Positions 7,488 through 36,619 are shown, counted from the first letter of the stretch. The stretch: DNA of 64,000 bases from Candidatus Rokuibacteriota bacterium (GCA_016179965.1 JACPCF010000008.1:9601-73600), one strand, 5' to 3'. A program made the numbers and translations. The notes: a model not told the origin generated them from the letters alone.

Positions 7488-7496
7488 GGCCCCGGC

Positions 7497-8225: not shown

Positions 8226-8240
8226 CGTGTCTTCTCCTCG

Positions 8241-9932
8241 TCAGTCGGCCGGGCGAAGGACGCGGCCGGGCGGCGGGCCCTCAGGCGACTCGGGTAGCCT
8301 TCCGTCGCTGATCACCGCCCGCCCGTTCACGAACGACCAGACGAGACCGCTAGCGCGCTGGACGAGGCGGGGCCCGCCGTCGGGCAGGTCGTGCCGAACC
8401 TCCGGCGCGTGATCGCTGATCGTCGCCGGATCGAAGACCACGATGTCGGCGGCGAGCCCGGGGGTCAGGCGTCCCCGATCGCGGATGCCGAAGACATCCG
8501 CGGGCATCGAGGTGATCCGTCGCACCGCCTCTTCGAGCGTGAGCGCCTTCCGCTCGCGCACCCATTGGCCCAGGAGCCGGCTCGTCTGGCCGGCTTCACA
8601 GAAGAGCGTGAGATGGGCCCCGGCGTCGGAGAGACCCAGGAGCGTCTTGGGGTGCGTGAAGATGTCCGCGACGGACGCCGCGTCGGTGTTCAGGATGGCG
8701 ACCGTGAACTCGGTCTTGAGGTCCTCGTCGAGAGCCAGGTCGAAGAAGGCGTCGATGACGTCTTTTCCCATCTCTCGAGCCACGTCGGCGACGGGCCGGC
8801 CGACGAAACGGGCGTGGGCCGGCGACTGGACCGCATGCACGCGGAGCGGCGCGGTGTCGCCGGTGAAGAGGGGAGTCCGGCCGACGGTCGAGCGGAACTC
8901 CTGCCGGAACCCCGGATCCCGAAAGAGCGCGCGCCAGCCCGACAGCGGAGTTTCCATCACCCGCCGCCACACGGGGAACCGGTAAAAGACGAAGGGTCCC
9001 GTGAGGTCGAAGGTGGCGGTGAGGGGCGAGCAGGTCCCTTGCGGGTAGATGGGTACACCTTCCCGATGGAGCGCCTCGATCCGGGCGAGGACCTCGCGGT
9101 GCTCCGCGGGGCGCGAAGGGTTGTGGCGGATCGAGACGAGCGTGACGGGCCGCCGTCCCGCGCGGGCCAGCTCGGCGAACCGGTCGACCTCCGCGACGCG
9201 ATCGGGTCGCGTGCCTCCGATCGTCAGCTCGAGGATGCCCCGGCCGGTCTCGCCCATCACCTCGACGAGCCGCGTCAGCTCCTCGTCCGCGGCGAGCCGG
9301 CTCGGCACGGGCCGGCCGCGGTCGCCGACGTGGTTCGTGTTCGCCGAGGAGGAGAGACCGAGGGCCCCAGCCCCCATTGCCTCACGGACGACCGCCGCCA
9401 TCTCCGCGATCTCGTCCGCCGACGCCGCCCGCTCCCACGCCGCGTCTCCCATCACGTATTGGCGGACCGCGGAATGGCCGACGAGGGCGCCGACGTTCAC
9501 CCAGAGGCCGCCCCGGTCGAGCGCGTCCAGGTATTCCCGGAAGCTCTCGAAGTCCCAGCGGATCCCCTTCCGCATCGCCTCCAGCGACATGCCCTCGACG
9601 TACTGCAGCATGCGCATCAGCGCCTCGCGGTCCCGCGGCCGGCAGGGCGCGATGGTGAAGCCGCAGTTGCCGGTCACGACCGTGGTGACCCCGTGCCAGG
9701 AGGAGCACGAGGCGAAGGGATCCCAGGTGAGCTGAGCGTCGTAGTGGGTGTGGGGGTCGATGAACCCCGGGGCCACGGCGAGCCCGGTGGCGTCGATCTC
9801 CCGCCCTCCGCGCGCCGTCACGACGCCGACCTCGCCGATCCGCCCGTTCGCCACTGCCAGGTCGCCGTGACGGGCGGGGGCTCCGGTCCCGTCAACGATC
9901 AGGCCGCCGCGAATCACGAGGTCGTGGCTCAT
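8241..9932 (-). CDS. N-acyl-D-amino-acid deacylase (D-aminoacylase) family amidohydrolase
   Basis: N-terminus MSHDLVIRGGLIVDGTG...GFIDPHTHYD metal-binding motif; length and motifs typical of D-aminoacylases; start set at the internal ATG matching homologue N-termini. Confidence 0.85.
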   Translation of the reverse strand: MSHDLVIRGGLIVDGTGAPARHGDLAVANGRIGEVGVVTARGGREIDATGLAVAPGFIDPHTHYDAQLTWDPFASCSSWHGVTTVVTGNCGFTIAPCRPRDREALMRMLQYVEGMSLEAMRKGIRWDFESFREYLDALDRGGLWVNVGALVGHSAVRQYVMGDAAWERAASADEIAEMAAVVREAMGAGALGLSSSANTNHVGDRGRPVPSRLAADEELTRLVEVMGETGRGILELTIGGTRPDRVAEVDRFAELARAGRRPVTLVSIRHNPSRPAEHREVLARIEALHREGVPIYPQGTCSPLTATFDLTGPFVFYRFPVWRRVMETPLSGWRALFRDPGFRQEFRSTVGRTPLFTGDTAPLRVHAVQSPAHARFVGRPVADVAREMGKDVIDAFFDLALDEDLKTEFTVAILNTDAASVADIFTHPKTLLGLSDAGAHLTLFCEAGQTSRLLGQWVRERKALTLEEAVRRITSMPADVFGIRDRGRLTPGLAADIVVFDPATISDHAPEVRHDLPDGGPRLVQRASGLVWSFVNGRAVISDGRLPESPEGPPPGRVLRPAD

Positions 9933-20426: not shown

Positions 20427-21575
20427 TCATGGGCGCCGGTAGAGGGCTTTGAGCCAGGGGGGGACGATGAAGGTGGAGGCCATGACCATGATGATCACCG
20501 CGGCGTACAGGGTCTGGTCGATGACCCGGTTGGCCAGGCCGACGCCGGCGAAGATCAACCCCACCTCCCCCCGGGGGATCATCCCCACCCCGACGGGCCA
20601 GCGCCTCACGCCCCGCCGGTAGACTCCGAGGCCGGCCGCGAGCTTCCCGAGCACCGCCACGGCGGTCAGGGCGAGGGCGAAGCCGAGGGCGCCCTCGCCG
20701 AAGGGGTTCAACGCCGCCGGGTCCACCTTCATCCCGACCGTGACGAAGAAGACGGGAACGAACAGGTCTGCCACCGGCTTGATCTGCTCCTCGATGTGGG
20801 CGCGCGGCTCGGTCCGGGCGAGGATCAGACCGGCGGCGAAGGCCCCGATGATCGCCGCGAGGCCGATCCGCTCGGACAGCGCGGCCAGGAGGACGCAGAA
20901 GAGCACCGCATAGACGATGAGGCTCCCTCGCGCCCGCATGCGCCCGACCCAGACGAGGAGGGTGGGGGCAAAGCGGATCCCCAGGGCGACGGCGAGGACG
21001 AGGAAGACCAGCGCCTTGGCGAGGATGAGGGCGACCGTGGCGAGGGAGAAGACGCCCGTCTGCACCAGGCCCGTGACGACGGCCAGGATCACGAGCCCGA
21101 GGACGTCGTCCAGGATCGCTGCGCCCAGCACGACGCGGGCGGCCGCATCCTGGAGGCGGCCCAGGTCCGAGAGCACGCGGGCCGTGATGCCGACGCTCGT
21201 GGCCGTGAGCGTCGCGCCGATGAAGACCGCGACGAGCGCCGGCTTCCCCCAGAAGACCGCGAGCGCGTAGCCCAGGGCGAACGGGCAGGCGATCCCCCCG
21301 AGCGCCACGACCGTGGACTGCAGACCGGCCCGGAGCAGTTCGCTCAGGTCCGACTCGAGGCCGATCTCGAAGAGGAGGATGATGACCCCGATCTCGGCCA
21401 GGACCTGCAGGATCTCCGACTCGCGGACGAGACCCAGGACTGCGGGGCCGACGATCACGCCCGCCAGCAGCTCGCCCAAGACGGCGGTCTGGCCGACGCG
21501 CTCCATCGCCTCGCCGGCCAACTTGGCCGCGAGCCAGACGATCACCAGGCCGAGCAGGAGCTCGCCGAGTCTCAC
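20427..21575 (-). CDS. monovalent cation:proton antiporter (CPA family, KefB-like transmembrane domain only)
   Basis: About 12 TM segments and the GEL/AGV antiporter motifs; intact copy of a module whose remnants recur at 30199-30330 and 31868-32100. Confidence 0.85.
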   Translation of the reverse strand: MRLGELLLGLVIVWLAAKLAGEAMERVGQTAVLGELLAGVIVGPAVLGLVRESEILQVLAEIGVIILLFEIGLESDLSELLRAGLQSTVVALGGIACPFALGYALAVFWGKPALVAVFIGATLTATSVGITARVLSDLGRLQDAAARVVLGAAILDDVLGLVILAVVTGLVQTGVFSLATVALILAKALVFLVLAVALGIRFAPTLLVWVGRMRARGSLIVYAVLFCVLLAALSERIGLAAIIGAFAAGLILARTEPRAHIEEQIKPVADLFVPVFFVTVGMKVDPAALNPFGEGALGFALALTAVAVLGKLAAGLGVYRRGVRRWPVGVGMIPRGEVGLIFAGVGLANRVIDQTLYAAVIIMVMASTFIVPPWLKALYRRP

Positions 21576-21600: not shown

Positions 21601-22116
21601 TCAAGTCAGTAGCTTGACGGTTGCGGCAACCGTGAAGGTCACGGCCATCATGGCCAGGGCCGCACCCCAGGCGCTCGATGAGCTTGTAAGTGATCTCTTC
21701 CCGGTGCCGCGGCTCTGCCTTGAACTGGCGGTTGTTTGTGGCTCCCTCCTTTCGGGTCGACACCGCCGGACGGCGTCAGCCATTTCGATGGGGCAGCGCA
21801 CCGCGAGGCCAAACCGGTCCACGGGAAAGCAGGGATCGTAGTCGGGGGAAGAGCGGCGCTTGGGAAGCCGGGCCAGGAGGAGAAGGCCCAGGAAGGTGCA
21901 GAGCCCGGCGAAGAGGATTGTGAGCTCGAAGGCAATTACAACGAAGGGAGGGATCGAGATCACGGGCTTCCCGCCGGTAATCAGGTTCCACTTGAGCGAG
22001 GACCAGATCGTGAACGCGAAGCCGGAGAAGGTCCCAGTGAGTCCCCCAACCAGGGTGAAGAGACGGACTGGGCTGACGGGACGGCCCACCTCCACCGCCT
22101 CCTTGATCTCCTCCAC
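21601..22116 (-). CDS. DUF3341/ActD-like membrane protein; 3' end overlaps a degraded DUF465-gene homologue
   Basis: WNLITGGKPVISIPPFVVIAFELTILFAG...ARLPKRRSSPDYDP pattern resembles ActD-type two-TM proteins; the last ~45 codons of the ORF run through DNA homologous to the DUF465 gene of the antiporter module. Confidence 0.45.
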   Translation of the reverse strand: MEEIKEAVEVGRPVSPVRLFTLVGGLTGTFSGFAFTIWSSLKWNLITGGKPVISIPPFVVIAFELTILFAGLCTFLGLLLLARLPKRRSSPDYDPCFPVDRFGLAVRCPIEMADAVRRCRPERREPQTTASSRQSRGTGKRSLTSSSSAWGAALAMMAVTFTVAATVKLLT

Positions 22117-22261
22117 GGGGACCGGCGAGTACGCGGTGAAGTCGGTGAACCCCCGCGCCCGCAGCTCGCCGATCGCCCGGACAGATTACTGGGATCTCCT
22201 CGTGAGCGATCCTCCGCTTGCTCAGTACCTCGGGGCTCGAGGGTTTGATCTGGAAGTGGAA

Positions 22262-22300
22262 AAACGGGCACGCCCGGTTTGGGCATGCCCGTTTGACGAG
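22262..22300 (-). terminator. rho-independent terminator downstream of the DUF1344 gene (minus strand)
   Basis: On the minus strand AAACGGGCAUGCCC...GGGCGUGCCCGUUUUU: GC-rich hairpin followed by a U5 run, immediately 3' of the stop at 22312. Confidence 0.5.
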
Positions 22301-22311
22301 GGAAGAACCGT

Positions 22312-22566
22312 TTACTGCGAGACCTCAAAGCTCGTGACGATTTTCTTGCCGTCCCGCTCCTCGTAGGTGGCCTTCACGGAAGCCCCCTCCTTCAGGGCGT
22401 CCATTGAGAGGCCCTCGGCCATCCAGAGCTGGGTACCGTCCTCAAGGACGAATATCCGATCGGCGGGATCTACTTTCTGGATCTTCCCCCCGACCTGTCC
22501 AGCCCAGACACCGCCCGCTGAAACGACCAACAGCATCGCCAATGCGACTCCTAAGACCTTCTTCAT
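22312..22566 (-). CDS. DUF1344-like small secreted protein
   Basis: RBS GGAGGA before ATG; signal peptide MKKVLGVALAMLLVVSAGGVWA; about 60-aa mature domain. Confidence 0.6.
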   Translation of the reverse strand: MKKVLGVALAMLLVVSAGGVWAGQVGGKIQKVDPADRIFVLEDGTQLWMAEGLSMDALKEGASVKATYEERDGKKIVTSFEVSQ

Positions 22567-22772
22567 GACGGATCCTCCAGTTTTGGGGTGCAGGTAAGCG
22601 TCGCCGCATGGAGAGCCGGAGCTTCTGCTTCCGGAAACTCTCGCCGCAGGCTTGCCAGCCGACCTTTCCAAACCCTCCTATACCGGCCCTCTCTTACCGG
22701 CTGAAGAAAAATATCCAAACGTAGATGGCGAGCACTACCCCGAACCCCATGACCGTGCCGAGCTGCCCCACC

Positions 22773-23132
22773 CTAGTCACCTCCTGCCCGCGGGAAACCC
22801 CAAGGGCTCTCTCCCCTCGCCCGCAAGCGCCCCCAGCGCCAAGATGAAAGCGCCGCGACCAGCCGAGCGACAGTCTGACCTTGGACGCCTTTATGCGCGC
22901 GGACCCGTGATCGATCGCCAGGACTGACCGGGCCCGGTGGACTCCCCCGCCACCAGCCGTCTATGCGCCGCATGAGGCGCCGGGCTCGGCCGGAGCCCAG
23001 GTGGAGAAGGGCCACCCCAACCAGCAGGGGAAACACACCGGGGAGGTCGGGATGAACGAGCCCGATCGCTCCGACCGTCACCAGGGCCCACCCGAACCAT
23101 CTCCGAAGCCGCCGCCGATTCCTGATAGTCAT
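22773..23132 (-). CDS. small transmembrane protein, PGPGW-family-like
   Basis: Two TM helices flanking a P/G-rich turn (LVHPDLPGVFPLL); weak similarity only. Confidence 0.35.
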   Translation of the reverse strand: MTIRNRRRLRRWFGWALVTVGAIGLVHPDLPGVFPLLVGVALLHLGSGRARRLMRRIDGWWRGSPPGPVSPGDRSRVRAHKGVQGQTVARLVAALSSWRWGRLRARGESPWGFPRAGGD

Positions 23133-23219
23133 CGGCTTCCCTCCTCGATTACCCCAACCGCCACCAGACTCCAGCCGAGCACCTTCCTGGCTACGCCGGT
23201 CATCCTGCCCTCCAAGCTC

Positions 23220-23525
23220 TCACCGGAAGATCCGGAGCATCCCGGAGAGGAAGCCGCCCTCGCCCTCCCCCAGGCGCTCCAGTTCGCCGCAGTCGAGCCA
23301 GATCCCGTCGCAGCGCGAGCACTTGTCGATCTCGACTCCCCGGTAGTGGACCGGCACGAGTTCGCCCCCGCAGCGAGGGCAGAGCATGGCGCCGAGCTTC
23401 GCGATCCGCCGGCGGCTCTCCTCCATCTCTTCCCCCCGTCTGGCCTCCGCCTCCTTCCGCCGCCGCTCGAACTCCATCCGCGCGAAGTACTCTTCCTCCT
23501 GGTTGCTCGGTTTCTGGATTGCCAT
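23220..23525 (-). CDS. zinc-ribbon protein (zf-TFIIB-like CPxCG...CxxCxG)
   Basis: CPRCGGELVPVHYRGVEIDKCSRCDGIWLDCGELE four-Cys ribbon after an acidic, Arg-rich N-terminus. Confidence 0.6.
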   Translation of the reverse strand: MAIQKPSNQEEEYFARMEFERRRKEAEARRGEEMEESRRRIAKLGAMLCPRCGGELVPVHYRGVEIDKCSRCDGIWLDCGELERLGEGEGGFLSGMLRIFR

Positions 23526-23547
23526 CGTCACGCCTCCCTGGCGAAGC

Positions 23548-24888
23548 TCACGACAGCTTCTCACTGCCCGGGTTGGGGACACGCCCCACGGCCTCCCCCC
23601 AAGAGAGCCCCCCGATCCGGAGCTTCAGCAGACCGAAGAACCCCCGCCGGCTCTCCCGGCTCGCTACCAGGAAGAGGACCGAAAACACGAGGTACGAGTA
23701 GGCGAACAGGTAGCCCGCGGCGAACGCGAACCCGGGGAGCGATGCGAACAGCTGGGGGAACATTTGAGGGAGCAACTGGGTGAGGAGCTGGGTTGAGAAG
23801 AGCAAGAAGAGAAGCGTCCCCTCTCTGAGCGAGAGCGAGAAAGAAGCCAGCACCACGACCCCCAGGAGGGACTGGGCCGCGGTGAGGAAGATCTCCTTGA
23901 CCTGCACCGCGTCGAGCGGCATCGCCCCAATTTGGGCTGTGGAGAGGCTGTAGGCCAGGGGCAGTGCCCCTACCAGGAGCGTCCACTGGTTCACCTTGGA
24001 GGACAGGAGGATCCCCATGCCCGCCGCAGCGCTTCCGCGGAGGACGAACAGGGTCGCAACAATGAACTCGGGGGACTCGGAGGCCAGGGGCGCGAGCCAC
24101 TGGATCAGGAGGTACTCCGGGACCTGCAGGATCTTTCCTGTGGCGATCAGGGACTCAGCGAAGGGCTCCGCCGCCACGAGGATCGTAAGCCCGGAGAAGA
24201 GGAACATGACGACGGTGGTCGCCCGTCTCAACGGGATGGGAAGCCGTCGGATGAGCACGGGTGGCCCCACGAGGTGCGGATCCTCCACCGGCTGGCGCGT
24301 GACCGCTCGGAGGTAGAACCCGACGAGGGCGAGGAGCACCACCGAGTCCACCAGCGACAAGGTGCCTTTGAGGGGGATCAAAAAGGAGTAGCCGGTGGCG
24401 AGCAGTAGGTAGCGTAGCTCGATGCCGTGGGCCGGCTCCAGCTGAATCTCCGTCTGCCTCCGCCGGCTCTTAAGCCACAGAACGAAGACAAGCGCGGCCC
24501 AGCCGACCCCGATCAGGAGGCGGTTGGCTCCCGTCATATTGGCCGTGGCGTAGCCGACGTAGGCGGGATCCTTTCCGGCCTGCCAGGCCAGGTAGAGGTC
24601 TACGGCGTACTCGGGGAGGACGGCGATGATGGCCAACGCCGCGATGGCCAGGCTCCGCGGGATGTCCAGCTGGGCCAGCTCGGCTGCCCAGGAGAGGATG
24701 AACGCCGCGCCGAGAATGCCTGCCCCCGAAGAGAGGGCCTCGAGGGCGGACGGGAGGTGGGCCCCGCTCCACCGGACCAGGAGCCACTGGAGCGCCAGCC
24801 CAAACGTGGAGATAAGCCAGATCGCGTGCCCGGTCGTCCCATTACCTCGACCTGCCGCTCCAGCTGCCGTCATGGCATCGAAGCCCAT
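23548..24888 (-). CDS. CaCA-superfamily (Na+/Ca2+ exchanger-like) membrane transporter, divergent
   Basis: 10-11 TM segments with two alpha-repeat-like motifs (VLPEYAVDL and [17 protein letters not shown]); start codon uncertain (24888 or 24873). Confidence 0.55.
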
Positions 24889-25270
24889 CCTTTCCACGAG
24901 GATCGGAGGACGACAAAAAAAGGCCGGCAGAACGCCCCCTACGAGGCATCCCGCCGGCCTGTGCTCCAACTGGCCCTTCCCGGGAGGGAAGTGCCCTCTG
25001 GCGAACCCGCCGTGCGTCTAAACTACTTCAACCTTAGTGGGAGTCGTCCCCCTTGTCAAGGGCTCGTGGCCCACCCAGGACTTTTCGCCGCGCTTGGCCG
25101 CGTGATGCGCCTCGTTGACTTTCCTTCACAGTCCAGAAGATACTGAGGCCGTGGCGACAAGCAGTCCGGAACCGATAGCCCCCGCACCGGCCTGCGCGGA
25201 TCTGCTCTTGATAGAGACCTCAAGCTAGGCGCGGCTCCACAGTTCTCACCCGCAGCCTCGGCGCTCGACG

Positions 25271-25648
25271 ATGGCCGGAAAGACCAAGGGACAGGTCGAA
25301 GCGGAAATCAGCCAGACCCTGGTGAAGTTCGAGCTGGAGTACATGGGCCGAGGCCCTAGCGACGTCCGGACCCATCTCCTGGGGGACATGGTTGTGGTAC
25401 GGCTCAAGGGGATCCTCACCCCGGCGGAGCGGCAGCTCGTCAAGGCCGAGGGCGTAGAGCTGATCAAGCAGGTCAGGGCCAAGCTGCTTGAGACGGGGCG
25501 GTCCGTGCTGAAGCAGCGGGTGGAGCGGATCACCGGCCTCTCTGTCGTGAGCATGCACTCCGATCTCAGCACCACGACGGGAGAGCGGGTCATTCTCTTC
25601 GTCATGAGCGAGAACGTGGAAGAGAAGTTCGCGGGCCTCAGAAGATAA
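25271..25648 (+). CDS. DUF2294 (MpsC-like) protein, paralogue 1
   Basis: 125 aa; conserved with 25831-26196 and 28101-28478 (FELEYMGRGP... / LTPRS.EVR...G..L). Confidence 0.7.
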   Translation: MAGKTKGQVEAEISQTLVKFELEYMGRGPSDVRTHLLGDMVVVRLKGILTPAERQLVKAEGVELIKQVRAKLLETGRSVLKQRVERITGLSVVSMHSDLSTTTGERVILFVMSENVEEKFAGLRR

Positions 25649-25658
25649 ACGGCGTCGG

Positions 25659-25688
25659 CTTGACAGCAGGAGGTCGCCCCGGGTAGAT
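25659..25688 (+). promoter_or_regulatory. sigma-70-like promoter (TTGACA, 18 bp, TAGATT)
   Basis: Consensus -35 and good -10 located after the stop of DUF2294-1 and about 70 nt upstream of a strong terminator. Confidence 0.4.
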
Positions 25689-25754
25689 TGACTCAGAATC
25701 TGACGGCAGACTAGCCAGAAGGCACTTCCCTCTGGAGGGGCCGGCTGGAGCGTA

Positions 25755-25795
25755 GGCCGGGGGAGACTGGCAGAGGTCTCCCCCGGCCTTTTTAT
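25755..25795 (+). terminator. rho-independent terminator (GGCCGGGGGAGAC, loop, GUCUCCCCCGGCC, then UUUUUAUU)
   Basis: 13-bp perfect GC-rich stem, 8-nt loop and T-run. Confidence 0.6.
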
Positions 25796-25830
25796 TGTCC
25801 GGGTCCGAACCAGGAAGGGAGGGATCACCC

Positions 25831-26196
25831 ATGGAGCGGCAAGAGATGGAGCGACGCCTTGCCGAGCTGACACAGGGGTTCTTCCGGGCCAAGCTGCGCC
25901 TGACCCCTCGGTCGATGGAGGTCCGGGAGGAGGGCGACGCGCTGGTTCTCAGGGTCAACGGGTTCGTCGCCCCGGCTGAGAGGGCGATGATTGACCACCC
26001 CAAGGATCGGTGGGCGATTGAGGACTACTACCTCCGCCTGTTCGATCAGCTCACGCCTCTGCTGAGAGCTGGGGTCGGAAAAGCCGGTCCCCTCGTCAAG
26101 GTGCAGACGTTTCTCGATCTTTCAAGTGATGAATACCGCTGTATTTTGACCTTGGCGAGGCAAGGCGAGGTGATGTGGGCGGATTCTCGCGAATAA
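25831..26196 (+). CDS. DUF2294 (MpsC-like) protein, paralogue 2
   Basis: RBS GGAAGGGAGGGA before ATG; about 60% identical to paralogue 3 over the N-terminal 100 aa. Confidence 0.7.
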   Translation: MERQEMERRLAELTQGFFRAKLRLTPRSMEVREEGDALVLRVNGFVAPAERAMIDHPKDRWAIEDYYLRLFDQLTPLLRAGVGKAGPLVKVQTFLDLSSDEYRCILTLARQGEVMWADSRE

Positions 26197-26209
26197 GGAG
26201 GGAGCAGGG

Positions 26210-26455
26210 ATGTGGCCATTTGGGAAAATCGCCTGCGGGGTCTGTGGTGAGCGCTTTTCGAAGGGCGAGCTGAAGCTCTCACTTCGCGAAAGAAGCGTCG
26301 CGGTCTGCCGCCACTGTTTCGAGGGCTGGTGGATGCGGGGCCGGAAATGCGACCGGTGCGGGGAGCAGGTGACAGGGACTCAGGCCGTCGCGGTCTTCCC
26401 CGAGCACCGGAGCCTCGGGCACTTCGACTGCGGCGGGGTCCCCCTGAGCGCATAA
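26210..26455 (+). CDS. small Cys-rich zinc-finger protein (candidate anti-sigma factor or sigma-associated regulator)
   Basis: RBS AAGGAGGGAG; 81 aa with CGVCG...CRHC...CDRCG...C, i.e. at least two CxxC pairs; sits immediately upstream of the sigma-70 gene. Confidence 0.55.
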   Translation: MWPFGKIACGVCGERFSKGELKLSLRERSVAVCRHCFEGWWMRGRKCDRCGEQVTGTQAVAVFPEHRSLGHFDCGGVPLSA

Positions 26456-26592
26456 CCTCCGCCGGGCGCAGGACCGACTTCGAATAATGGGAATGGGGCC
26501 GATCCCTCCCGCTCCTACGAAGCGCGAAGCCGACTCATGAAGCGGCTGGGAGAGCTTCAACACGCCCTCCACCAGCTGAGACGTGCCGTATC

Positions 26593-28047
26593 ATGACCTT
26601 CAGCGAGCTTGTCCATCCCCGTCCGCAAGGCGTGAGCCTGGAGCCGGTTGAGCCCGCCGACCGGACCGTGGTCTGGGACGAGGAGCCTGTGGGCCACGGC
26701 GACGCCCCCCCGTCGCTCCCTTCCGCTCCCCAAGACCTCGTGCGCACCTACCTGAGGGAAATCGGAAACCGCCCCCTGCTGACGGCGGCCCAGGAAGTGG
26801 AGATCTGCCGTCGGCTCGAGAGCGCCCAAGCGGAACTCCGGCGAGCGCTCGCCGCAATCCCGCTGGCTGTCCAGAAACTCATCGACCGTGCCGACAGCGC
26901 GCGGAAGCACGCCACCCCGCTGGATGAGCTGATCCTTCTTCCCGACGGGAGGGAACCCAAACGGGAGGAGGTCAAGCGGATCCTCGCCGCATTTGCCCGG
27001 ATCAAGCGGCTTGAGCGGGAGATCGAAAAGCTCCGGGCTGACCTCAAAGACCGGCGTCGCTCGGCGTCGACCCGCGCGAGCTATCGCGGCCTGATCGCTC
27101 GGCGCCGCGCGGCCATTCAACAGGTAGTGGCTGGCCTTCCCATCAAGCCGGCCCTCGTGGACGAGCTGGCCGCAGAGGTCCAGCGCCTGAACGACGAGAT
27201 CCAAAAGCTCTCGGCGGGCTCCACGGTTCGGCGGCGGGGGCAGCAGCTCCGCGCTCTGGAGGCCAAGATCGGGCTCCCCCGCCAGCAGCTCCAGGGGCTT
27301 CTGGCGATCATCGCCGAAAAGCAGGGGGGCGTGCGTGAGGAGAAGGGCGAGCTGGTCGAGGCGAACCTGAGGCTGGTGGTCTCGGTGGCCAAGCGATACC
27401 AGAGGAGTGACCTGTCGCTCCTGGACCTCATCCAGGAAGGCAACATCGGGCTCATGAAAGCGGTGGGCCGATTCCAGTACCGCCGCGGGTTCAAGTTCTC
27501 GACCTACGCCACCTGGTGGATCCGGCAGGCCATCACCCGCGCGATCGCAGACCAGTCCCGGACCATCCGCATCCCCGTTCACATGGGTGAGGTCCTGCAC
27601 CAGCTCTCACGGCTGCACCGGTCCCTCATGAACGAGTTGGGGCGCGAGCCCACGCTCGAGGAACTCACCCGCCGAATGGGCATTCCTGACAAGAAGGTCC
27701 AGCTTATTCTGACGTCTTCGCGGATCCCGGTATCGCTGGAGAAACCGGTCGGCGAGGACTCCCAGCTCAAAGATTTTCTCCAGGACACGCAGACCGTCTC
27801 GCCCGAGAGCGAGCTCTTCGGCCGGGACTTGAGCCGGCAGGTGAAGCGGGCGCTGTCCACGCTTTCTGATAGGGAGCGGGAGATTCTCCGTCTCCGCTTC
27901 GGGATCGGGCGGGAAGGCGAACACACCTTGGACGAAGTCGGCCGTCACTTCTCGGTGACCCGGGAGCGGATCCGCCAGATCGAGGCCAACGCCTTCCAGA
28001 AGCTCCGGCTCCGGAAGGCAAGCCTCAGGGTGCTGATCAAGAGCTAG
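26593..28047 (+). CDS. RNA polymerase sigma-70 factor, RpoD-like (regions 1.2, 2, 3, 4)
   Basis: Region 2 [34 protein letters not shown] and [30 protein letters not shown] match RpoD better than RpoS; region 4 HTH at the C-terminus. Confidence 0.9.
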
Positions 28048-28100
28048 CCGGAGGCATTCGCTATCTCTTGTCCGTGTCGTGATCCAGGGAGGGCCCGCCC

Positions 28101-28478
28101 ATGGAGCGCCAACAGGTAAGGGAGCGAATCCGCGAGCTGACGCTGGCGTTCTTTCAAGCCAAGCTGGGCCTGACCCCTCGGTCGGTGGAGGTCCGGGGCG
28201 GGGGAGACACGCTCGAGGTCAGGGTCAGGGGGTTTTTCGCGCCGGCAGAGAAGGCGCTGATTGACCACCCCAAGGAGCGACGGGCCATCGAGGACTACTA
28301 CCTCCGGCTGTTTGATCAGCTCCTTCCTCTCTTGAACGCCGGGGTCGGAAAGGCCGGCCCCATTGTCAGGGTCCAGACTCTTCTCGATCTTCGGGGCAAT
28401 GAATGCGTGTTCATGGTGCCCCTGGGGAAGGAAAGCGAAGTAATTATCCAGAATCCTGCGGAGGCCGAGCGGGAGTAA
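28101..28478 (+). CDS. DUF2294 (MpsC-like) protein, paralogue 3
   Basis: Strong similarity to 25831-26196 (LTPRSVEVR, FAPAEKALIDHPKERRAIEDYYLRLFDQL). Confidence 0.7.
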   Translation: MERQQVRERIRELTLAFFQAKLGLTPRSVEVRGGGDTLEVRVRGFFAPAEKALIDHPKERRAIEDYYLRLFDQLLPLLNAGVGKAGPIVRVQTLLDLRGNECVFMVPLGKESEVIIQNPAEAERE

Positions 28479-28984
28479 GCAGCAGCGGCGCGGGAAATAA
28501 GGAGATCGGGGGAGCGATCCAGCGACGAGACGACTCGGAGCGAATGGGACTCTGCGCCAGCAAACGTTACGACGACAAGCGCTGACTATTAGCGTCTTTG
28601 CGAGGAGGAGGCGGCGATGTGGAAATGGGTAGGCGTGACGATCACGGCCACGGCGGTAGCGGCGATGACCCTCGGCTGCTCTCAGCAGCCGTCAGGGACG
28701 GCAGCGGTGATCGAGGACAAGATCTACACGGTGACGCCGGCCTCGGTGAAGGTGAAGGCCGGGATTCTCGCGGGCGAGGTCACGGAGATGAGAGTCACGG
28801 AGCGGGTCGAGAAAGGCTCCGGCCGCGTCGTTTCCCCGGCGAAGCTCACGGGGACGCTCAAGCTGAAGAATAGCTCTAAGGATCAGGCCGTCCGCCTTGT
28901 TGGGGGAAAGATCCAGTACATCGATGCCCAGGGGCAACCGATCAAGCTCGAGGAGACACGGACCGAGCCGACTATTAAGAGCCT

Positions 28985-29170
28985 CTAACAAAATGAGCCT
29001 GCAGGATTCAGGTAATTCCAGCAGATGAGGGAGCACCCGAGAGACAGAAACGCTTCATGAATCTCTGGACGGCGTTCGTAGCGAACACGCAGGCGACGGA
29101 ATTGGTGCAGCCACGCGAGGGTCCGTTCCACCACCCATCGATAGACACCGAGCAGGTTGCCCAGACTCAT
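28985..29170 (-). pseudogene. IS5/IS4-family (DDE_Tnp_1) transposase C-terminal fragment
   Basis: RWVVERTLAWLHQFRRLRVRYERRPEIHEAFLSLGCSLICWNYL is the conserved C-terminal block of IS5-family transposases; the N-terminal ~250 aa are absent. Confidence 0.6.
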
Positions 29171-29193
29171 AACGCTGGATGCTAGCCGTCTCG

Positions 29194-30198
29194 TCAGTGG
29201 CCTGGTGCGCCCAGGGTCGCCACAACCACTGCGCCCACCAAGTAGATGGACGCCATCAGCACCAGGCCAGTCGCAGCCACCAGGCTATGGAGCCGGTTGC
29301 GCCCCAGTATCAGCCCCAGCCCCAGCAAAATCAGGGCGATGGCTACCCCTCCGGCGACGAAGTGGGCGGGCTCGGTCTGATTGGTGAGGATACCGTCGCG
29401 ATAGAAGAGGTCGGCGTAGAACAGGATAGTGACATTGAAAGCGCAGCTACCGTACAGGCAACTGACCGCCAGGTCCACAGCCCCCATGCGGGCGGCGGCG
29501 ATGGTCGATGACGCCTCCGGCATGGTGGTCACCAGGGAGACGGCCAGGATGCCCAGGGTGCTGGAGGCCACGCCCGTGATCTCGGCAATCTGGTCGCTAC
29601 TCCAGGCCAAGAAGAATCCGGCCACTATCACCCCTGCGGAGACCAGGGCAAACATCAACGAGGCCCGCTGCAGGGTCATGGCCGGCTCGTCTCCTTGCTC
29701 CTCATCATTCTGGGGGCGAGTCACGTACACTAGCCGCATTGCCACTACATACAGCACCAGGAGGATCACCGAGGATAGCCCGATGTTCCACAGGGAGACC
29801 TCCATCTTTACCGCGCCGAACATCACGGCTGCTCCGGTCATGATGGCTGCGGACACAATCAGATAGCCCTGCTCCGGCGCTACCCGCTGCAAGAAGCGCT
29901 TGCCACCGAACGCCAGGGCCACCATAGACAGGGTGAGCATGTTGAGCATGTTGGCCCCCAGCACGTTGGCCACCGCCAGCTCCGGGTTGGGCGGACTAAG
30001 CCGCACCGCAGAGATGTTGGTCGCCAGCTCTGGTAGGGATGTGGCTAAAGCCAGCAGGACGGTGCCCACGAAGAGACGGCCCCAGCCGGTCAGGGCGGCC
30101 AGGGCGTCGCTGTATTTGGCGAGCTGGGTGCCAAAGAAAATAACTGACGCAGCGCTGGCCAGGAATATCAATACTGCTATTGCCAGGTCACCACTCAT
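29194..30198 (-). CDS. CaCA-family Na+/Ca2+ exchanger-like membrane protein (YrbG-type), apparently intact cargo gene
   Basis: RBS GAGGT before ATG; 10 TM segments with two alpha-repeats (GTSLPELATNISA and MPEASSTIAAA). Confidence 0.8.
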   Translation of the reverse strand: MSGDLAIAVLIFLASAASVIFFGTQLAKYSDALAALTGWGRLFVGTVLLALATSLPELATNISAVRLSPPNPELAVANVLGANMLNMLTLSMVALAFGGKRFLQRVAPEQGYLIVSAAIMTGAAVMFGAVKMEVSLWNIGLSSVILLVLYVVAMRLVYVTRPQNDEEQGDEPAMTLQRASLMFALVSAGVIVAGFFLAWSSDQIAEITGVASSTLGILAVSLVTTMPEASSTIAAARMGAVDLAVSCLYGSCAFNVTILFYADLFYRDGILTNQTEPAHFVAGGVAIALILLGLGLILGRNRLHSLVAATGLVLMASIYLVGAVVVATLGAPGH

Positions 30199-30330
30199 TC
30201 ACGGATACCTCATCAGTTGCTGGGCCCAGTCGACTTCTCCGGCCTCACGCGCGTGATGCCGGCGCTCTGGCCCGCTCCATTCCTCCCCGGCCAGCTTGGC
30301 GGCCAGCCAGACGATGACCAGCCCGCGGAG
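30199..30330 (-). pseudogene. remnant of the KefB-like antiporter 5' end (N-terminal ~20 codons plus upstream DUF465-gene fragment to 30500)
   Basis: LVIVWLAAKLAGE matches the N-terminus of the 20427-21575 protein; 30380-30500 is homologous to the DUF465 gene (…IARTDNRQFKARLRHDEQIIQGLIEKL). Confidence 0.5.
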
Positions 30331-30581
30331 CTCCGCCATCGTCCCTGGTGTGAAGGATCCCACCGGTAAATTCAGGGGGAGCCGAGCTTCTCGATGAGCC
30401 CTTGAATGATCTGTTCGTCGTGCCTCAGTCGCGCCTTGAATTGACGGTTGTCGGTCCTGGCGATCTCCATGCGGAGATCGCTCAGTGCGCATTTCGGTCG
30501 TCGTGAACACCCCGATCGCTCCATCATGAACGCTCAGATCGGCGCATGGTGATCGGAGCGCAGCGACGCTGGGCGGTTCAG

Positions 30582-31195
30582 TCAGTCGTCGAGCTTGGCC
30601 TCCTTTCTCCGTGAGGGTCCTTTTAGCACAAGTCGGTGGGCGTTGTGAAGGAGGCGGTCGCAGATCGCATCGGCCAGGGTGGCGTCGGCCAGGTAGTTAT
30701 GCCACTGGGCCGGCGGGAGCTGGCTGGTGATGATGGTCGAGCGAGTGCCATAGCGATCCTCGAGGATCTCGAGCAGGTCGCGGCGCTCCGGGTCCTGCAC
30801 GGGGGCGAGGCCCCAGTCGTCGATCACGAGGACGTCGAGGCGGGCGAGCTTGCCGAGCAGGCGGATGTAGGTGCCATCGGCGCGGGCCAGGGTGAGCTCG
30901 TGGAAGAGGCGAGAGGCGCGGCGGTAGCCGGCGCGATAGCCCTTGCGGCACGCCTGATGTGCCAGGGCACACGCGATGAAGCTCTTCCCGACGCCGGTGG
31001 CGCCGACCAGGATCACGTTGTGGTGCTCAGCGACCCAGCGGCAGGTGGCGAGCTGGCGGACGACGGCCTTGTCGAGCTCGCGCCGGGCCGGGTAGTCGAT
31101 CGCCTCGAGACACGCCTGCGAGAGCTTGGCCTCCTGGAGGGCGCGGACCAGGCGCTTGGCCCGATGCGCCCGGGGATCTGCCCAAAGAGGCTCTG
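30582..31195 (-). pseudogene. IS21-family IstB helper ATPase, N-terminally truncated fragment
   Basis: Walker A LVGATGVGKS, Walker B DVLVIDDWG, C-terminal LLHNAHRLVLKG; upstream frame shows ...LVRALQEAKLSQACLEAIDYPARRELDKA matching IstB region 2; about 45 N-terminal residues missing. Confidence 0.7.
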
Positions 31196-31867
31196 TGTCA
31201 AGTGGCTTTCAGCAAGCTGGAGGATGAAGTACCGGGCATGCCGGATCAGGCGCCCACCGGTCTTGAACACCCGCTGCTGTAGGCTCGTTAGTGACCAGCT
31301 CTGAATGGCAGGGGGCAGGACAAGCCGACGCCAAAAACCTTGCTCATTTTGTTAGAGGCTCTAAGTTTCCCACGTACGGCGCCGAGCGGCTCGACCCTGG
31401 GCAGGATGCGACCCAGTCCGTGGACGTGGACTTCCCCGCCGAAGCCCTGAAGGTGAAGAAGCTGAAGGAGATCCGCCTCGAGCTCACGTACATCCCGTCA
31501 CCGTACAAGGAGGAGACGGTCAACTTCACCGTGTCGATCAGCGGCCAGTAAGTCGGGGAGGTGGCTTCCCCCGCAGTCACCTCCGAGAAATCAAGCGTAA
31601 TGTGGGCGGACTCTTCCTAACAAGGAGGCCGGGCGCGGAAAAATGAAAACAACTGGTGGGCAGGGACAGTATTGAACCGCCGCCATCAGGATTTTCAAAT
31701 ACTTGATCCCCATCGCTTGTCTCAGCGAGATGAATGGAAACCCACCAAATTGAGCCCGGGAAGTGAAACCCTTCCACACTACACTCAACAATTCGCCAGT
31801 CGAGGCGGCATTGCTCTGCGACGACGCTGGGTATTGCGGCCACCGAAGGTCGAGACCATGATCATCG

Positions 31868-32100
31868 TGACCAGCGCGGAGTAGAGCTCTTGTTCGACCA
31901 CGCGGTTGGCAAGGCCGATGCCCGCGAAGATCAACCTCACCTCGCCGCGCGGGATCATGCCCACGCCGACTCGCCCAAGACGGCGGTCTGGCCGACGCGC
32001 TCCATCGCCTCGCCGGCCAACTTGGCCGCGAGCCAGACGATCACCAGGCTGAGCAGGAGCTCGCCGAGTCCCACCTCTCCAGCTTACTTTATCCGGCTCC
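31868..32100 (-). pseudogene. third, internally deleted copy of the KefB-like antiporter (C-terminal ~30 codons fused to N-terminal ~35 codons plus native upstream region)
   Basis: 31868-31965 is homologous to 20480-20600 (…ANRVVEQELYSALVTMIMV). 31966-32100 is homologous to 21470-21600 including the start codon and the leader; about 870 bp of the gene is missing. Confidence 0.55.
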
Positions 32101-32848: not shown

Positions 32849-33523
32849 ATGGTCGAGCCAGCCCCCTTCGTCTTCTTCGGGTGCATCGAGCTGAGGGAGA
32901 TTCTCGGCCTGCGAGCCCGGGACGAGCGGGAACTGATGGAGCTCCTGGAGCGCGCCCCGCTCGGATCGGTCTACTACCACACCCACAGCGTCTTCCTGCG
33001 CCACCACCAGATTACGGGCGCCTATCCGAATGACTTCGCCAACTGGGTGGCCTCGCAGGTGCGGGACCAGGTGCTCGGCGAGCGCCTGGCCGTCGTGGAC
33101 CCGTTCGCCTTCCCCAGTCTGGAGGCCCTGCGGGAGGAACTCGTGTCCATCATCGATCACCACATCGCGGCCCTGCATCCGGTGCCCCGGGTCGTCTTCG
33201 GGGATCCGTTCTTCTTCGTCCAGTCGCACGTGATCGAGGTGCCCACCGGCCTGGAGGCGTGTACCCTCGGCGAGTTTCGCCGGTGCCTCGCGGAAGTGGA
33301 TGCCAGCTCGATCTACTTTCACGCGCTGGAATCCAGGGTTCGGCGCGGGCACCCCCATGGGGATTTCGCCGACTGGATCGGGCAGGCGCTGGGGCTCCAG
33401 TCCCAGGCGGAGGAGATCGCGCGGATCAATCCCTACCTGGGGGGCCTGGAGGAGATCCGCGCCCGGATGCTCCGGCTCCTCGACGCTGCGCTGGGAGGGG
33501 AGGCCCCCGCCGGTGGCGGCTAG
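32849..33523 (+). CDS. hypothetical protein translationally coupled to treT
   Basis: 224-aa protein-like ORF whose stop overlaps the treT GTG start by 11 nt; no family assigned. Confidence 0.5.
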   Translation: MVEPAPFVFFGCIELREILGLRARDERELMELLERAPLGSVYYHTHSVFLRHHQITGAYPNDFANWVASQVRDQVLGERLAVVDPFAFPSLEALREELVSIIDHHIAALHPVPRVVFGDPFFFVQSHVIEVPTGLEACTLGEFRRCLAEVDASSIYFHALESRVRRGHPHGDFADWIGQALGLQSQAEEIARINPYLGGLEEIRARMLRLLDAALGGEAPAGGG

Positions 33524-34721
33524 CGCGCTCACCATCGAGGCCTACCGGGAGGTGGCCCCGAGAGGGACGATCGACTTCCTCCTCCGCCTCGCCGAACGGG
33601 CGCGCGGGCGGCGCTTCCTCCACGTGAACTCGACGCGCTTCGGCGGGGGCGTGGCCGAAATCCTCAGCCGGCTCGTGCCCATCATGGGGGACCTCGGGAT
33701 CAAGGCGGACTGGGAGGTCATGGAGGGTGATTCGGAGTTCTTCGCCACCACCAAGGCCTTCCATAACGCGCTCCAGGGCACCGAGCAGGTGGTCACCGAG
33801 GCAATGCTGGAGCATTATCTCGAGGTCAACCGGGTCAACGCCGAGCGCCTCAGGCCGGCGGCCGATCTGGTGCTGATCCATGACCCCCAGCCGGCGGCGA
33901 TGATCGAGTCCCGCCCGCCGGAGGGGAAGTGGGTCTGGCGCTGTCACATCGATCTCTCCCTCCCTCAGCGCCGCGCCTGGGCGTTTCTGCGAAGGTACGT
34001 GATCCGCTACGACGCGGCCGTGTTCTCCCTCCCGGCCTTCGCCCAGCAACTGCCGATCCCCCAGTTCCTCGTCTATCCCTCCATCGACCCGCTGGCGGAA
34101 AAGAACCGCCGGATGACCAGGAACGAGATCGCGAAGATCCTCGGCGCCCTCCAGATCCCGGACGACAAGCCGATCCTCCTCCAGGTCTCGCGCTTCGATC
34201 GCTTCAAGGATCCGATCGGCGTCATCAACGCCTACCGGATGGTCAAGCGCTACCACGATGTCCGGCTGGTGCTGGCGGGGGGCGGCGCCACGGACGACCC
34301 TGAGGGGGCGCAGGTGCTCGCCGAGGCGCGCGAGGCCGCCGGCCGCGATCCCGACATCTACGTGCTCGACCTGCCGTCCAACGCCCACCTCCAGATCAAC
34401 GCCCTCCAGCGCGCTGCCGCGATCGTCATCCAGAAGTCCACGCGGGAGGGGTTCGGCCTGACGGTGGCCGAGGCGATGTGGAAGGGCAAGCCCGTCGTCG
34501 GGGGAGCGACGGGAGGCCTCACGGTGCAGATCCTCTACGGGGTCACAGGGTACACCGTCAACTCCGTGGAAGGCGCCGCCTACCGGATCCGGTATCTCCT
34601 GAGCAACCCGGCCCTCATGCGGAAGATGGGGGAGGCCGGGCGCGAGCACGTGCGGCGGAATTTCCTCATCACTCGGCACCTCCGGGATTACCTCTCCCTC
34701 CTGGTCCACCTCACCGCCTGA
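33513..34721 (+). CDS. treT: trehalose glycosyltransferring synthase TreT (GT4 family)
   Basis: Collinear with archaeal and bacterial TreT: HVNSTRFGGGVAEIL, FHNALQG, WRCHIDLS, LQVSRFD, EGFGLTVAEAMWKGKPV. Confidence 0.9.
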   Translation: MAASALTIEAYREVAPRGTIDFLLRLAERARGRRFLHVNSTRFGGGVAEILSRLVPIMGDLGIKADWEVMEGDSEFFATTKAFHNALQGTEQVVTEAMLEHYLEVNRVNAERLRPAADLVLIHDPQPAAMIESRPPEGKWVWRCHIDLSLPQRRAWAFLRRYVIRYDAAVFSLPAFAQQLPIPQFLVYPSIDPLAEKNRRMTRNEIAKILGALQIPDDKPILLQVSRFDRFKDPIGVINAYRMVKRYHDVRLVLAGGGATDDPEGAQVLAEAREAAGRDPDIYVLDLPSNAHLQINALQRAAAIVIQKSTREGFGLTVAEAMWKGKPVVGGATGGLTVQILYGVTGYTVNSVEGAAYRIRYLLSNPALMRKMGEAGREHVRRNFLITRHLRDYLSLLVHLTA

Positions 34722-34918
34722 CACACAGGGGCCGAGATGAACCCGATCTTCCAATGGATCGTTGCCCATACCACGGCGAAGTCGCTGGCACGACGCTGCC
34801 CACAATGTCAACGCACGCAAATTGTGGGTCGCAGCCAGGTCCGGGACACGGTACCCTGTGAGTTTTGCCGAACGCCTATTCCGCCGAAGGGCAGTTCGGG
34901 AGAAGGCTCGGGCACCTG

Positions 34919-36619
34919 ATGCCGGAGTTCCCCTTTTTCCGCGATCTCGTCCTGGCGGTCGGCGCGGCGCTCGTCGGAGGAGTGGCCGCTCAGCGCCTCG
35001 GCCAGCCTCCGATCCTCGGCTACCTCCTGGGCGGCATCCTCATCGGCCCTCATACCCCGGGGCCGGTCAGCGACGTCCACCGCGTCTCGACCCTGGCCGA
35101 CATCGGGATCGTCCTGCTGATGTTCGAGCTCGGCGTCGAGTTTCCGGTGTCGCGCTTGCAGAGGGTCCGGGTGATCGCCATCGGCGGCGGTCTGCTCCAG
35201 ATCGTCCTCACAGGGCTGGCGGCGGCGGCGGTGGCCCGGGGCCTCGGCTTTGGCGTCATCGAGCACGTGTTTTTCGGCGCCGTCGTCTCGCTCTCCAGCA
35301 CCATCGTCGCGCTCACGCTCCTGCTGGAGCGAGGGGAGATGGATACCCCCCACGGCGACATCACGGTGGGGATCTGCCTCGTCCAGGATCTGAGCCTGAT
35401 CGCGATGATGGTGCTCTTGCCCGCGTGGGCGGCGGCCGAGGGCGGGGTGGGCATCCCCCTGCTCCTCGCGCTGGGCAAGACCCTGGGACTCTTTGGCGGC
35501 GCCTATTTCGTCGCGTCTCTGCTGCTCCCCATTCTGTTCGCCGCGGTCGCACGCCTCAGGTCACGGGAACTCTTCCTGCTGATGGTGGTGCTCGTGGTGC
35601 TCGGCACAACCGTCACGCTCGCGGCCCTCGGTCTGTCTCCGGCGCTCGGAGCCTACCTGGCGGGGATAGTGGTCAGCCGCTCCCACTACAGCCGACAGGT
35701 GTTGGCGGAGCTGGTTCCGAGCCGCGACCTCTTCGCGAGCCTCTTCTTTGTGTCGGTGGGCATGCTCGTGGACCCGCTGCTGCTCTGGCGCCATCCCGGG
35801 ACGCTCCTGGCGGTCATCGGGCTCATTACGCTCCTGAAGGCGGGCGTGTCGGCGCTGGTTGTTCGCGTGTTCGGCTACCCGGCGGCGACGGCCATCATGG
35901 CCGGGCTCCTGCTCGCGCAGGTAGGGGAACTATCCTTCGTGCTGGCGAAGCTGGGCGTGGACGCCGGCTTTCTCAGCGCGGACCTTTACGGGGTGGTACT
36001 GGGAGGTGCGCTGATCTCGATCGTCCTCAACCCCGTGCTCCTACGGCACGCCGCCCCGTGGCTCGCCCGGCGCCCCGCGCGCCCGCTTGAGACACCGAGC
36101 CCTTTGGCCTCGGCCCTCCCGGAGGCATCGAGGCTGGTCGGCCACGTGGTGATCTGTGGATGCGGTCGGGTCGGCAGCGAGCTGGTGGCCCAGTTGCGCC
36201 CGCGAGGTGTGTCGTATGTGGTGATCGAGTTGAACCCCCTCCGGGTGGATGAGTTGCGACGACAGGGGGAGCCGTGTCTCTTTGGCGACGCCAGCAACTT
36301 CCACATCCTCCGCGCTGCGGGCGTCGAACGGGCCAGTCTCCTGGCCATTACTCACTACGATGCCGCGGCGGCGGAAACGACGGTTCGGAGAGTAATCGAG
36401 ATCCACCCGTCGCTCAAGATCATCGCGAGGGCTCACTACCCGACGGACGTTCAGCGCCTTCGGAAGGCCGGGGTCGCGGAGGTGGTCATGCCGGAGTTTG
36501 AGGCCGGGCTGGAATTTCTCCGCTGGACGCTCGGGCACCTGGGGGTCTCACCCGCCGAGGCCGATGCCCTGATCCAGCGCCGGCGTGCGGAGTTGAGGCC
36601 GGGCGAGACAACACCGTGA
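34919..36619 (+). CDS. CPA2-family K+/H+ antiporter (KefB/KefC-like) with C-terminal RCK/TrkA-N domain
   Basis: 12-13 TM helices, then Rossmann motif ICGCGRVGSELV and RCK core. Confidence 0.85.
   Translation: MPEFPFFRDLVLAVGAALVGGVAAQRLGQPPILGYLLGGILIGPHTPGPVSDVHRVSTLADIGIVLLMFELGVEFPVSRLQRVRVIAIGGGLLQIVLTGLAAAAVARGLGFGVIEHVFFGAVVSLSSTIVALTLLLERGEMDTPHGDITVGICLVQDLSLIAMMVLLPAWAAAEGGVGIPLLLALGKTLGLFGGAYFVASLLLPILFAAVARLRSRELFLLMVVLVVLGTTVTLAALGLSPALGAYLAGIVVSRSHYSRQVLAELVPSRDLFASLFFVSVGMLVDPLLLWRHPGTLLAVIGLITLLKAGVSALVVRVFGYPAATAIMAGLLLAQVGELSFVLAKLGVDAGFLSADLYGVVLGGALISIVLNPVLLRHAAPWLARRPARPLETPSPLASALPEASRLVGHVVICGCGRVGSELVAQLRPRGVSYVVIELNPLRVDELRRQGEPCLFGDASNFHILRAAGVERASLLAITHYDAAAAETTVRRVIEIHPSLKIIARAHYPTDVQRLRKAGVAEVVMPEFEAGLEFLRWTLGHLGVSPAEADALIQRRRAELRPGETTP

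Follow-up and report, generated by a model that had tools for sequence, protein, structure and literature searches.

In the DNA of Candidatus Rokuibacteriota bacterium (GCA_016179965.1, JACPCF010000008.1:9601-73600), a window of 64,000 nt to whose positions all coordinates refer, three genes of the DUF2294 (MpsC) family, designated A, B, and C, lie together with the genes for a zinc-finger protein of 81 aa (Zn81) and an RpoD-like sigma factor. In Methylomirabilota (Rokubacteria and NC10), the A-type DUF2294 gene is followed by a sigma-70-type promoter, a leader RNA of ~110 nt, and a strong terminator. Behind the leader, the gene content differs from locus to locus; a B-type DUF2294 gene is usually part of it, and so, often, is a gene for a protein that binds RNA polymerase, which is a sigma factor in the window and in the related locus L027, and DksA in L027 and in NC10. 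No other partner of gene A is as constant as the leader with its terminator, which was missed in an earlier sequence-only reading of the locus, in which the sigma factor stood at the center. We read the locus as a stress operon gated by transcription attenuation, of which the sigma factor is one output, and assign this reading a probability of about 0.45.

Leader RNA and intrinsic terminators

The first copy of the leader is located at 25690..25800 on the plus strand, where it precedes B, Zn81, the sigma gene, and C; it has an RNAalifold consensus structure and scores 135 bits with the covariance model R1. In the RNAalifold structure, a small hairpin (25699-25710) and a conserved three-part hairpin (25715-25748) are followed by an intrinsic terminator (25754-25789), which was also found by the terminator scan and consists of a 15-bp G+C-rich stem and a U-tract, all on the plus strand. 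The promoter-like site of this copy (TTGACA, 18 nt, TAGATT; 25660..25689, plus strand) scored 10/12 in the consensus scan, and its TTGACA begins 12 nt past the stop codon of A. The second copy (24911..25024) is on the minus strand before a cation exchanger gene and was detected with R1 at 56.4 bits (E 1e-13) and with the broader model R2 at 76 bits (E 1e-18). It has the conserved hairpin and, according to the terminator scan, an 18-bp terminator stem (24960-24921) with a U-tract; its minimum-energy fold yields both the hairpin and the terminator, with z = −3.8. The promoter-like site of the second copy (TTGACA, 17 nt, TAAGGT; 25031..25059, minus strand, with coordinates taken from the alignment row) contains an exact TTGACA at the conserved distance to the leader core. 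A weak promoter-like site before A itself (TTGACT, 18 nt, GATACT; 25115..25144, plus strand) scored 9/12. Features of an intrinsic-terminator attenuator that are present here include a promoter, a structured leader, a G+C-rich stem with a U-tract, and a gene that follows in the same orientation.

The spacer between A and B is conserved between lineages whose proteins are just 57-73% identical. TTGACA is invariant across the aligned Rokubacteria A-B spacers, and all six first-copy leaders that keep their upstream flank, including that of the NC10 locus L029, are preceded by an exact TTGACA and, 16-18 nt downstream of it, a −10-like hexamer. In an alignment of 15 distinct leader copies, which was fitted to the covariance model itself, 95.4% of the cells are paired, changes on both sides are seen in 19 of the 31 pairs, and the covariation score is 0.46, compared with 0.14 or less when the 3' partners are slid. 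When the copies were aligned from sequence with MAFFT alone, 94.5% pairing was obtained, and 7 of the 12 pairs in the conserved hairpin were compensatory. The hairpin carries invariant internal-loop and junction nucleotides, and the terminator stems comprise 15-18 pairs followed by U-tracts.

With the covariance model, the leader was found beside A in the window (two copies), in L002, in L027, in NC10, where it occurs in tandem, and in L039-41. In L029, the tandem leaders (3563-3676 and 3737-3843) are situated between A and a B-type gene, and TTGACA is present before the first only. A search using R2 with filters off detected no leader in the loci that have no A (those with Zn81 alone or with the B'-Zn81' pair described below) or in the canonical sigma loci, and no third copy within the 64-kb window.

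The leader RNA is apparently undescribed. The Rfam search gave nothing at gathering score in the region 22000-32000, and with E up to 10 it returned generic hairpins far below the cut-offs. Two known elements were considered for the leader and rejected: the ACGG loop of Guanidine-II, seen in the small hairpin, and the CCAGAG-GGC sequence of the PyrR binding site are not in all copies, and the respective Rfam models gave no match. The leader showed no start codon accompanied by a ribosome-binding site, which led to the rejection of a leader-peptide mechanism.

When the read-through RNA is folded to minimum energy, CUUCCCUCUGG (25724-25735), which is the 5' strand of the conserved hairpin, pairs with the ribosome-binding region of B, CCAGGAAGGGAGG (25813-25826). 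Such a pairing, predicted by folding, could possibly serve as a second, translational layer of control.

Two types of DUF2294 protein

All five open reading frames (ORFs) of the cluster are present at the coordinates given in the sequence-only reading and lie on the plus strand, and the Pfam matches agree with its assignment of three DUF2294 genes. A (25271..25648) encodes 125 aa with a pI of 9.6 and matches PF10057 at 127.8 bits; B (25831..26196) encodes 121 aa with a pI of 5.9 and matches at 27.4 bits; C (28101..28478) encodes 125 aa with a pI of 6.6 and matches at 33.1 bits, so that all three exceed the gathering cut-off of 23 bits for this family (DUF2294/MpsC). A GGAGGG ribosome-binding site is located 8 nt upstream of B, and C starts 53 nt past the sigma gene; B, Zn81, the sigma gene, and C are closely packed on the same strand.

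The three proteins had been described as paralogues 40-60% identical to each other, which holds for neither comparison with A. B and C are 62% identical, and A is ~25% identical to both: 27% over 92 aa in the comparison with B, 32% over 50 aa in that with C, and 22-23% when aligned globally. Between lineages, conservation is 55-80% for the A type and 30-62% for the B type, with B-type orthologues in L002, L021, NC10, and L039. On these identities, there are two orthologous types of DUF2294, C is a lineage-specific copy of the B type, and the supposed triplication resolves into a separate conserved type A and a pair of B-type genes.

A 210-bp deletion (window positions 25849-26059) strips most of B in the CSP1-6 lineage (L001, L005, L009, L010, and L011), and all CSP1-6-type loci retain C behind the sigma gene. 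B and C are suggested to be redundant, since this lineage has lost most of B and yet keeps C.

The AlphaFold model of A (pLDDT 89.5) shows the order helix-strand-strand-helix-helix-strand-strand, and that of C (pLDDT 77.9) has the same topology. The modeled fold resembles Bet3/V4R domains and is unlike STAS or anti-sigma domains, to be set beside a Foldseek search of the Protein Data Bank (PDB) that returned no match at E ≤ 0.001. A sequence search of the PDB with A gave noise only, with histone H4 at E > 0.3.

The function of the widespread DUF2294/MpsC family is not known, and the sole genetic test, in Staphylococcus aureus, gave no phenotype: the deletion of mpsC had no effect, and mpsC was dispensable for the function of MpsAB (PMC6689103). 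Outside staphylococci, mpsC does not lie together with mpsAB (PMC6689103). On these two grounds, the family name MpsC is functionally uninformative. A, B, and C share their Pfam family with the MpsC of S. aureus mpsABC; the present locus differs in that it has no mpsAB. Under the name DUF2294, the literature search found only an unrelated mention.

Genes behind the leader in relatives

The proteins of the locus correspond to MBI2152216-20, and the source, an uncultured bacterium, is close to Rokubacteria CSP1-6, with ~95% nucleotide identity between the locus and LDXP01000038.1. A genome scan with the B/C alignment matched one locus, that of Rokubacteria CSP1-6. The neighborhood sample, in which the loci of relatives were all retrieved via the A, B, Zn81, or sigma proteins, was grouped as seven lineages.

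The order A, B, Zn81, sigma, C is found in the window and in identical contigs, and the CSP1-6-type contigs have the same order with most of B lost by the deletion described above. In L004, which has 90% nucleotide identity, A and B are followed by an AMP-dependent ligase gene. L002 and L017 have A, B, and Zn81 with no sigma gene, and L012-L016 have Zn81 alone. In L027, whose A protein is 80% identical, A is followed by a frameshifted remnant of Zn81, DksA/TraR, an RpoD-like sigma, and a weak carbonic-anhydrase-like protein. Ten NC10 contigs have A, a B-type gene, and DksA. In L039-41, A is followed by a peptide-type ABC transporter operon that ends with a B-type gene, and L028, whose A protein is 55% identical, has none of these partners. 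Three reading frames were not counted as cargo, namely a 200-aa ORF in L039 and ORFs of 120 aa and 78 aa in NC10, which look like wrong-frame artefacts of G+C-rich sequence.

These gene orders place a sigma gene beside DUF2294 in two of the seven lineages and a gene for an RNA-polymerase-binding protein, sigma or DksA, in three. The sequence-only reading had called for a search for DUF2294 beside sigma genes in related taxa; the association of DUF2294 and zinc-finger genes with RNA polymerase factors is seen again outside the lineage of the window, in L027 (A, a Zn81 remnant, DksA, and sigma) and in NC10 (A, B, and DksA). The DksA proteins of L027 and NC10 have the C4 zinc finger of PF01258, a coiled coil, and the invariant DxxDxA tip. 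In L027, the genes behind the leader extend over 6819-9076: DksA with an intact DxxDxA tip, the sigma gene starting 2 nt later, and a Pro_CA-like protein at 22.4 bits against a cut-off of 25.7.

The sigma gene is an accessory of the cassette. A module around the sigma gene, as suggested earlier, is not supported: A-B-Zn81 (L002 and L017), A-B with neither sigma nor Zn81 (L004), and Zn81 alone (L012-L016) all occur without it, and canonical sigma loci have no DUF2294.

A separate locus in L021 and L022 (2616-3763 in L021) contains a lipoprotein gene, whose product is 87-88% identical to that of the window, a B-type gene, and a truncated Zn81, with no A and no leader; the order lipoprotein, B', Zn81' is shared by L020-L022. 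The L021/L022 locus could represent a degenerate second cassette of close relatives.

The sigma factor, a probable diverged RpoD paralogue

The sigma gene (26593..28047, plus strand; MBI2152219.1) encodes 484 aa in which Pfam detects regions 1.2, 2, 3, and 4, in agreement with the RpoD-type regions noted earlier, and no region 1.1 domain. The group-1-type motifs of regions 2.4 and 4.2 are retained in the alignment, and in the PDB the protein matches RpoD and SigA best. The protein nevertheless scores below all NCBIfam equivalog cut-offs, the best being NF004208 (RpoD) with 429 bits against 555, a comparison made for the sigma factor of the window only. More than 100 database clusters of Rokubacteria/Methylomirabilia sigmas of ~495 aa match it at only 56-67% identity. 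In regions 2-4, it averages 73% identity (maximum 75%) to this ~495-aa clade, whose members are 93% identical among themselves, and in the tree its branch is long and falls outside the canonical clade. The canonical sigma loci L006 and L007, from different genomes, have PMT, aminotransferase, and GT2 genes in common upstream and no DUF2294 neighbors; PMT, aminotransferase, and GT2 are all absent around the sigma gene of the window.

Because of the scores below cut-off, the identity of 73% against 93%, the long branch, and the different neighborhood, we conclude from these comparisons that the protein is probably a diverged, group-2-like paralogue of RpoD and not the housekeeping type. The possibility of an alternative sigma factor, which the sequence-only reading had raised, is supported by the identity, the branch, and the neighborhood. 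RpoD paralogy may recur in the group, as suggested by P0025, an RpoD-like protein of 473 aa from a JGI metagenome, which also has a long branch outside the canonical clade.

The sigma factors of the window and L027 are 47% identical and agree in 11 substitutions at sites that the canonical clade conserves. This hints, from sequence, at a common origin of the cassette-linked sigmas, which is not proven.

Among known proteins, the closest comparison is with the group 2 sigmas (RpoS, cyanobacterial SigB-E, and actinobacterial SigB/HrdA-D). The sigma factor of the window resembles them in having regions 1.2-4.2 with 2.4 and 4.2 motifs near those of group 1, in its divergence from the primary clade of the phylum, and in its position outside the canonical locus amid stress genes. 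Indirect support for dispensability, as in group 2, comes from relatives with A-B or A-B-Zn81, in which this sigma gene is missing from the locus. It differs in being as long as the canonical Rokubacteria sigma (~485-495 aa). To our knowledge, control by an upstream leader with a terminator has not been described for group 2 sigma genes.

The zinc-finger protein Zn81

The gene for Zn81 (26210..26455, plus strand) starts 13 nt after B, and its product has two predicted zinc sites. The motifs are three CxxC pairs (C9/C12, C33/C36, and C47/C50) and one HxxC (H71/C74), with seven Cys in total; the four Cys pairs counted earlier are therefore three, plus a His-Cys pair. Six homologues keep all eight ligand residues unchanged. 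The Pfam matches are sub-threshold only (DZR_2 at 21.4 bits against a cut-off of 27, and LIM, also sub-threshold), and a profile search of the PDB gave only weak RING/zinc-finger matches. Small stand-alone relatives of ~80 aa number ~40 among 1.84 billion representative proteins. B and Zn81 are adjacent in L002, L003, L017, L018, and L020-22. An assignment of Zn81 to DksA/TraR was rejected, as the hhalign probability against the DksA of L027 and NC10 was 0.6% and there was no PF01258 match.

Surrounding genes and stress context

The gene behind the second leader copy encodes a CaCA-family Na+/Ca2+ exchanger of 441 aa (23548..24873, minus strand; Na_Ca_ex, 67.9 bits) and is divergent from A. 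Its ORF is readable to 24969, a stretch occupied by the leader copy, and it is called as 441 aa in identical contigs. Orthologues 83-84% identical adjoin A in L005, L009, L010, L011, and L019, and cation ATPases adjoin A in other lineages. Within 15 kb, a Na+/H+ exchanger (20427-21575), two CaCA exchangers, the trehalose synthase TreT (33300-34721), and a Kef-type antiporter with Na_H_Exchanger and TrkA_N domains (34865-36619) are encoded, and together they give the region the look of an ion/osmotic stress island. The G+C content is 62-65% at 22-34 kb, compared with ~70% on the flanks.

Downstream of C, the 5' part of a lipoprotein gene with the lipobox LTLGC lies at 28617..28988 on the plus strand and the 3' part at 31362-31551; blastn alignments with L001 and L005 break at window position 28979 and resume at 31362. 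An insertion of ~2.4 kb (28980-31361) thus splits this gene of 182 aa, which is intact in relatives (L001, L005, and L009). The insertion contains fragments of a DDE transposase (28985-29170) and of IstB/IS21 (30582-31016) and, between them on the minus strand, the second CaCA exchanger (29194-30198). Upstream of the first exchanger, the minus strand carries small genes, one for a Zn_ribbon_TFIIB protein (23220-23582) and one, at 22312-22671, for a DUF1344 protein, with ActD of alternative complex III farther upstream (21601-22116); the identical contig L023 has the same order.

PADLOC reported no defence system, matching only generic sigma regions and nothing for the neighbors. The MZA anti-phage system was accordingly rejected, with MzaA at 326 bits against a cut-off of 800 and no PADLOC hit in the neighboring genes.

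Proposed mechanism and alternatives

In the proposed attenuation mechanism, transcripts from the TTGACA promoters would stop at the terminator unless a signal, probably ionic or osmotic stress, relieves termination. Upon relief, B, Zn81, the alternative sigma, and C would be made in parallel with the exchanger. Protein A would be the likeliest trans-acting reader of the leader, comparable to HutP, PyrR, or TRAP, and it is favored for this role because it is the constant neighbor of the leader, is never located behind it, is basic, and is highly conserved. The acidic B and C may be induced partners or antagonists of A. The gene arrangement is similar to those of HutP (hutP-terminator-hutHUIGM), PyrR, TRAP, and BglG/RAT, in that a candidate regulator gene is directly upstream of a terminator-bearing leader, a small conserved hairpin adjoins the terminator, and more than one target leader is near the regulator gene. 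A bolder and doubtful extension is that A-type DUF2294 proteins form a new class of RNA-binding attenuation proteins that read the hairpin, set termination, and thereby control a regulon of RNA-polymerase reprogramming (an alternative sigma and DksA) and cation export, with the B-type proteins as induced partners feeding back on A.

Several observations weigh against the attenuation reading. Termination and read-through are predicted only, and no antiterminator pairing conserved among the copies could be identified; the candidate, CCGGC/GCCGG, suits the copies that precede B and not those before the exchanger. The link between A and the leader may owe something to sampling, because A, B, Zn81, and sigma were the means by which all loci were retrieved. 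The distant A-type locus L028 has no leader detectable by R2 with filters off, and L027 has no B-type gene behind its leader. Between Zn81 and the sigma gene lie 137 nt, in which the latter could have a promoter of its own, though none is predicted there. Finally, accession look-ups yielded no canonical sigma from the assembly of the window.

The alternative that survives best is a leader that senses a small ligand or ion directly as a riboswitch. The DUF2294, Zn81, sigma, DksA, and exchanger genes would then be cargo, and A would stand beside the leader as a member of the same physiological system. Li+ (nhaA-I) and Na+ (DUF1646) riboswitches have a hairpin-plus-terminator architecture, and the leader is similar to them in its hairpin with conserved internal loops and its terminator before cation transporter genes. 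Its compact hairpin, in which internal-loop and junction nucleotides are invariant and which a terminator follows, its position before a cation exchanger amid cation and osmotic-stress genes, and its tandem copies in NC10, as known for some riboswitches, are all consistent with direct sensing. However, no Rfam riboswitch matched even at E up to 10, the models for the Li+ and Na+ riboswitches included; the leader differs from these in sequence and structure, and its cargo adds sigma, DksA, and DUF2294. The hairpin and the terminator also do not have the overlap usual in riboswitches. Moreover, a riboswitch leaves unexplained why A is the sole constant neighbor and is never behind the leader, and why the leader is absent where A is absent. 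We favor A as the reader of the leader, with direct sensing, itself tentative, nearly as likely.

The explanation offered in the sequence-only reading, that the DUF2294 paralogues and/or the zinc protein bind the sigma factor as anti-sigma or anti-anti-sigma factors in a partner-switching module, is improbable. It is consistent with the closeness of B, Zn81, sigma, and C on one strand, with the recurrence of DUF2294 by RNA-polymerase-binding proteins in three lineages, and with the CSP1-6 lineage, which lost B and kept C beside the sigma gene. The locus is also similar to zinc-containing anti-sigma (ZAS) systems such as RsrA and to STAS/RsbV-RsbW systems in having small proteins, one of them predicted to bind zinc, beside a sigma gene. 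The anti-sigma assignment of the zinc protein is not supported, as the ZAS motif HxxxCxxC is absent from Zn81, no Pfam anti-sigma family matches it, and it is unrelated to DksA. DUF2294 gave no match to the STAS fold, and Pfam detects no anti-sigma kinase or phosphatase encoded at the locus. ZAS and STAS partner switching are described for group 3/4 sigmas rather than RpoD-like ones. The part of the earlier idea that stands is the tie of the cassette to the transcription machinery; the anti-sigma and partner-switching part fails the fold and motif tests that were run.

Least probable of all is a chance juxtaposition in a rearrangement-prone island, where a duplicated or horizontally acquired rpoD and a copy of B came to lie behind an unrelated cassette and are expressed alone: close relatives do differ (B deleted, or sigma and C absent with the AMP-ligase following in L004), IS fragments and the 2.4-kb insertion lie beside C, and the G+C content is 62-65% against ~70%, whereas L027 independently has A, the leader, DksA, and an RpoD-like sigma, the sigmas of the window and L027 have the 11 common substitutions, and neither a terminator nor a promoter is predicted between Zn81 and sigma.

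Significance

The leader beside the A-type gene, supported by covariation, is the first testable clue to the function of DUF2294. If this is confirmed, the locus would contribute a new class of attenuator or riboswitch in two poorly studied phyla, Rokubacteria and NC10, and would serve as an example of an RpoD-like alternative sigma factor under the control of premature transcription termination. If A does read the leader, this would provide the first mechanism for a widespread domain of unknown function and a new protein-RNA regulatory pair.

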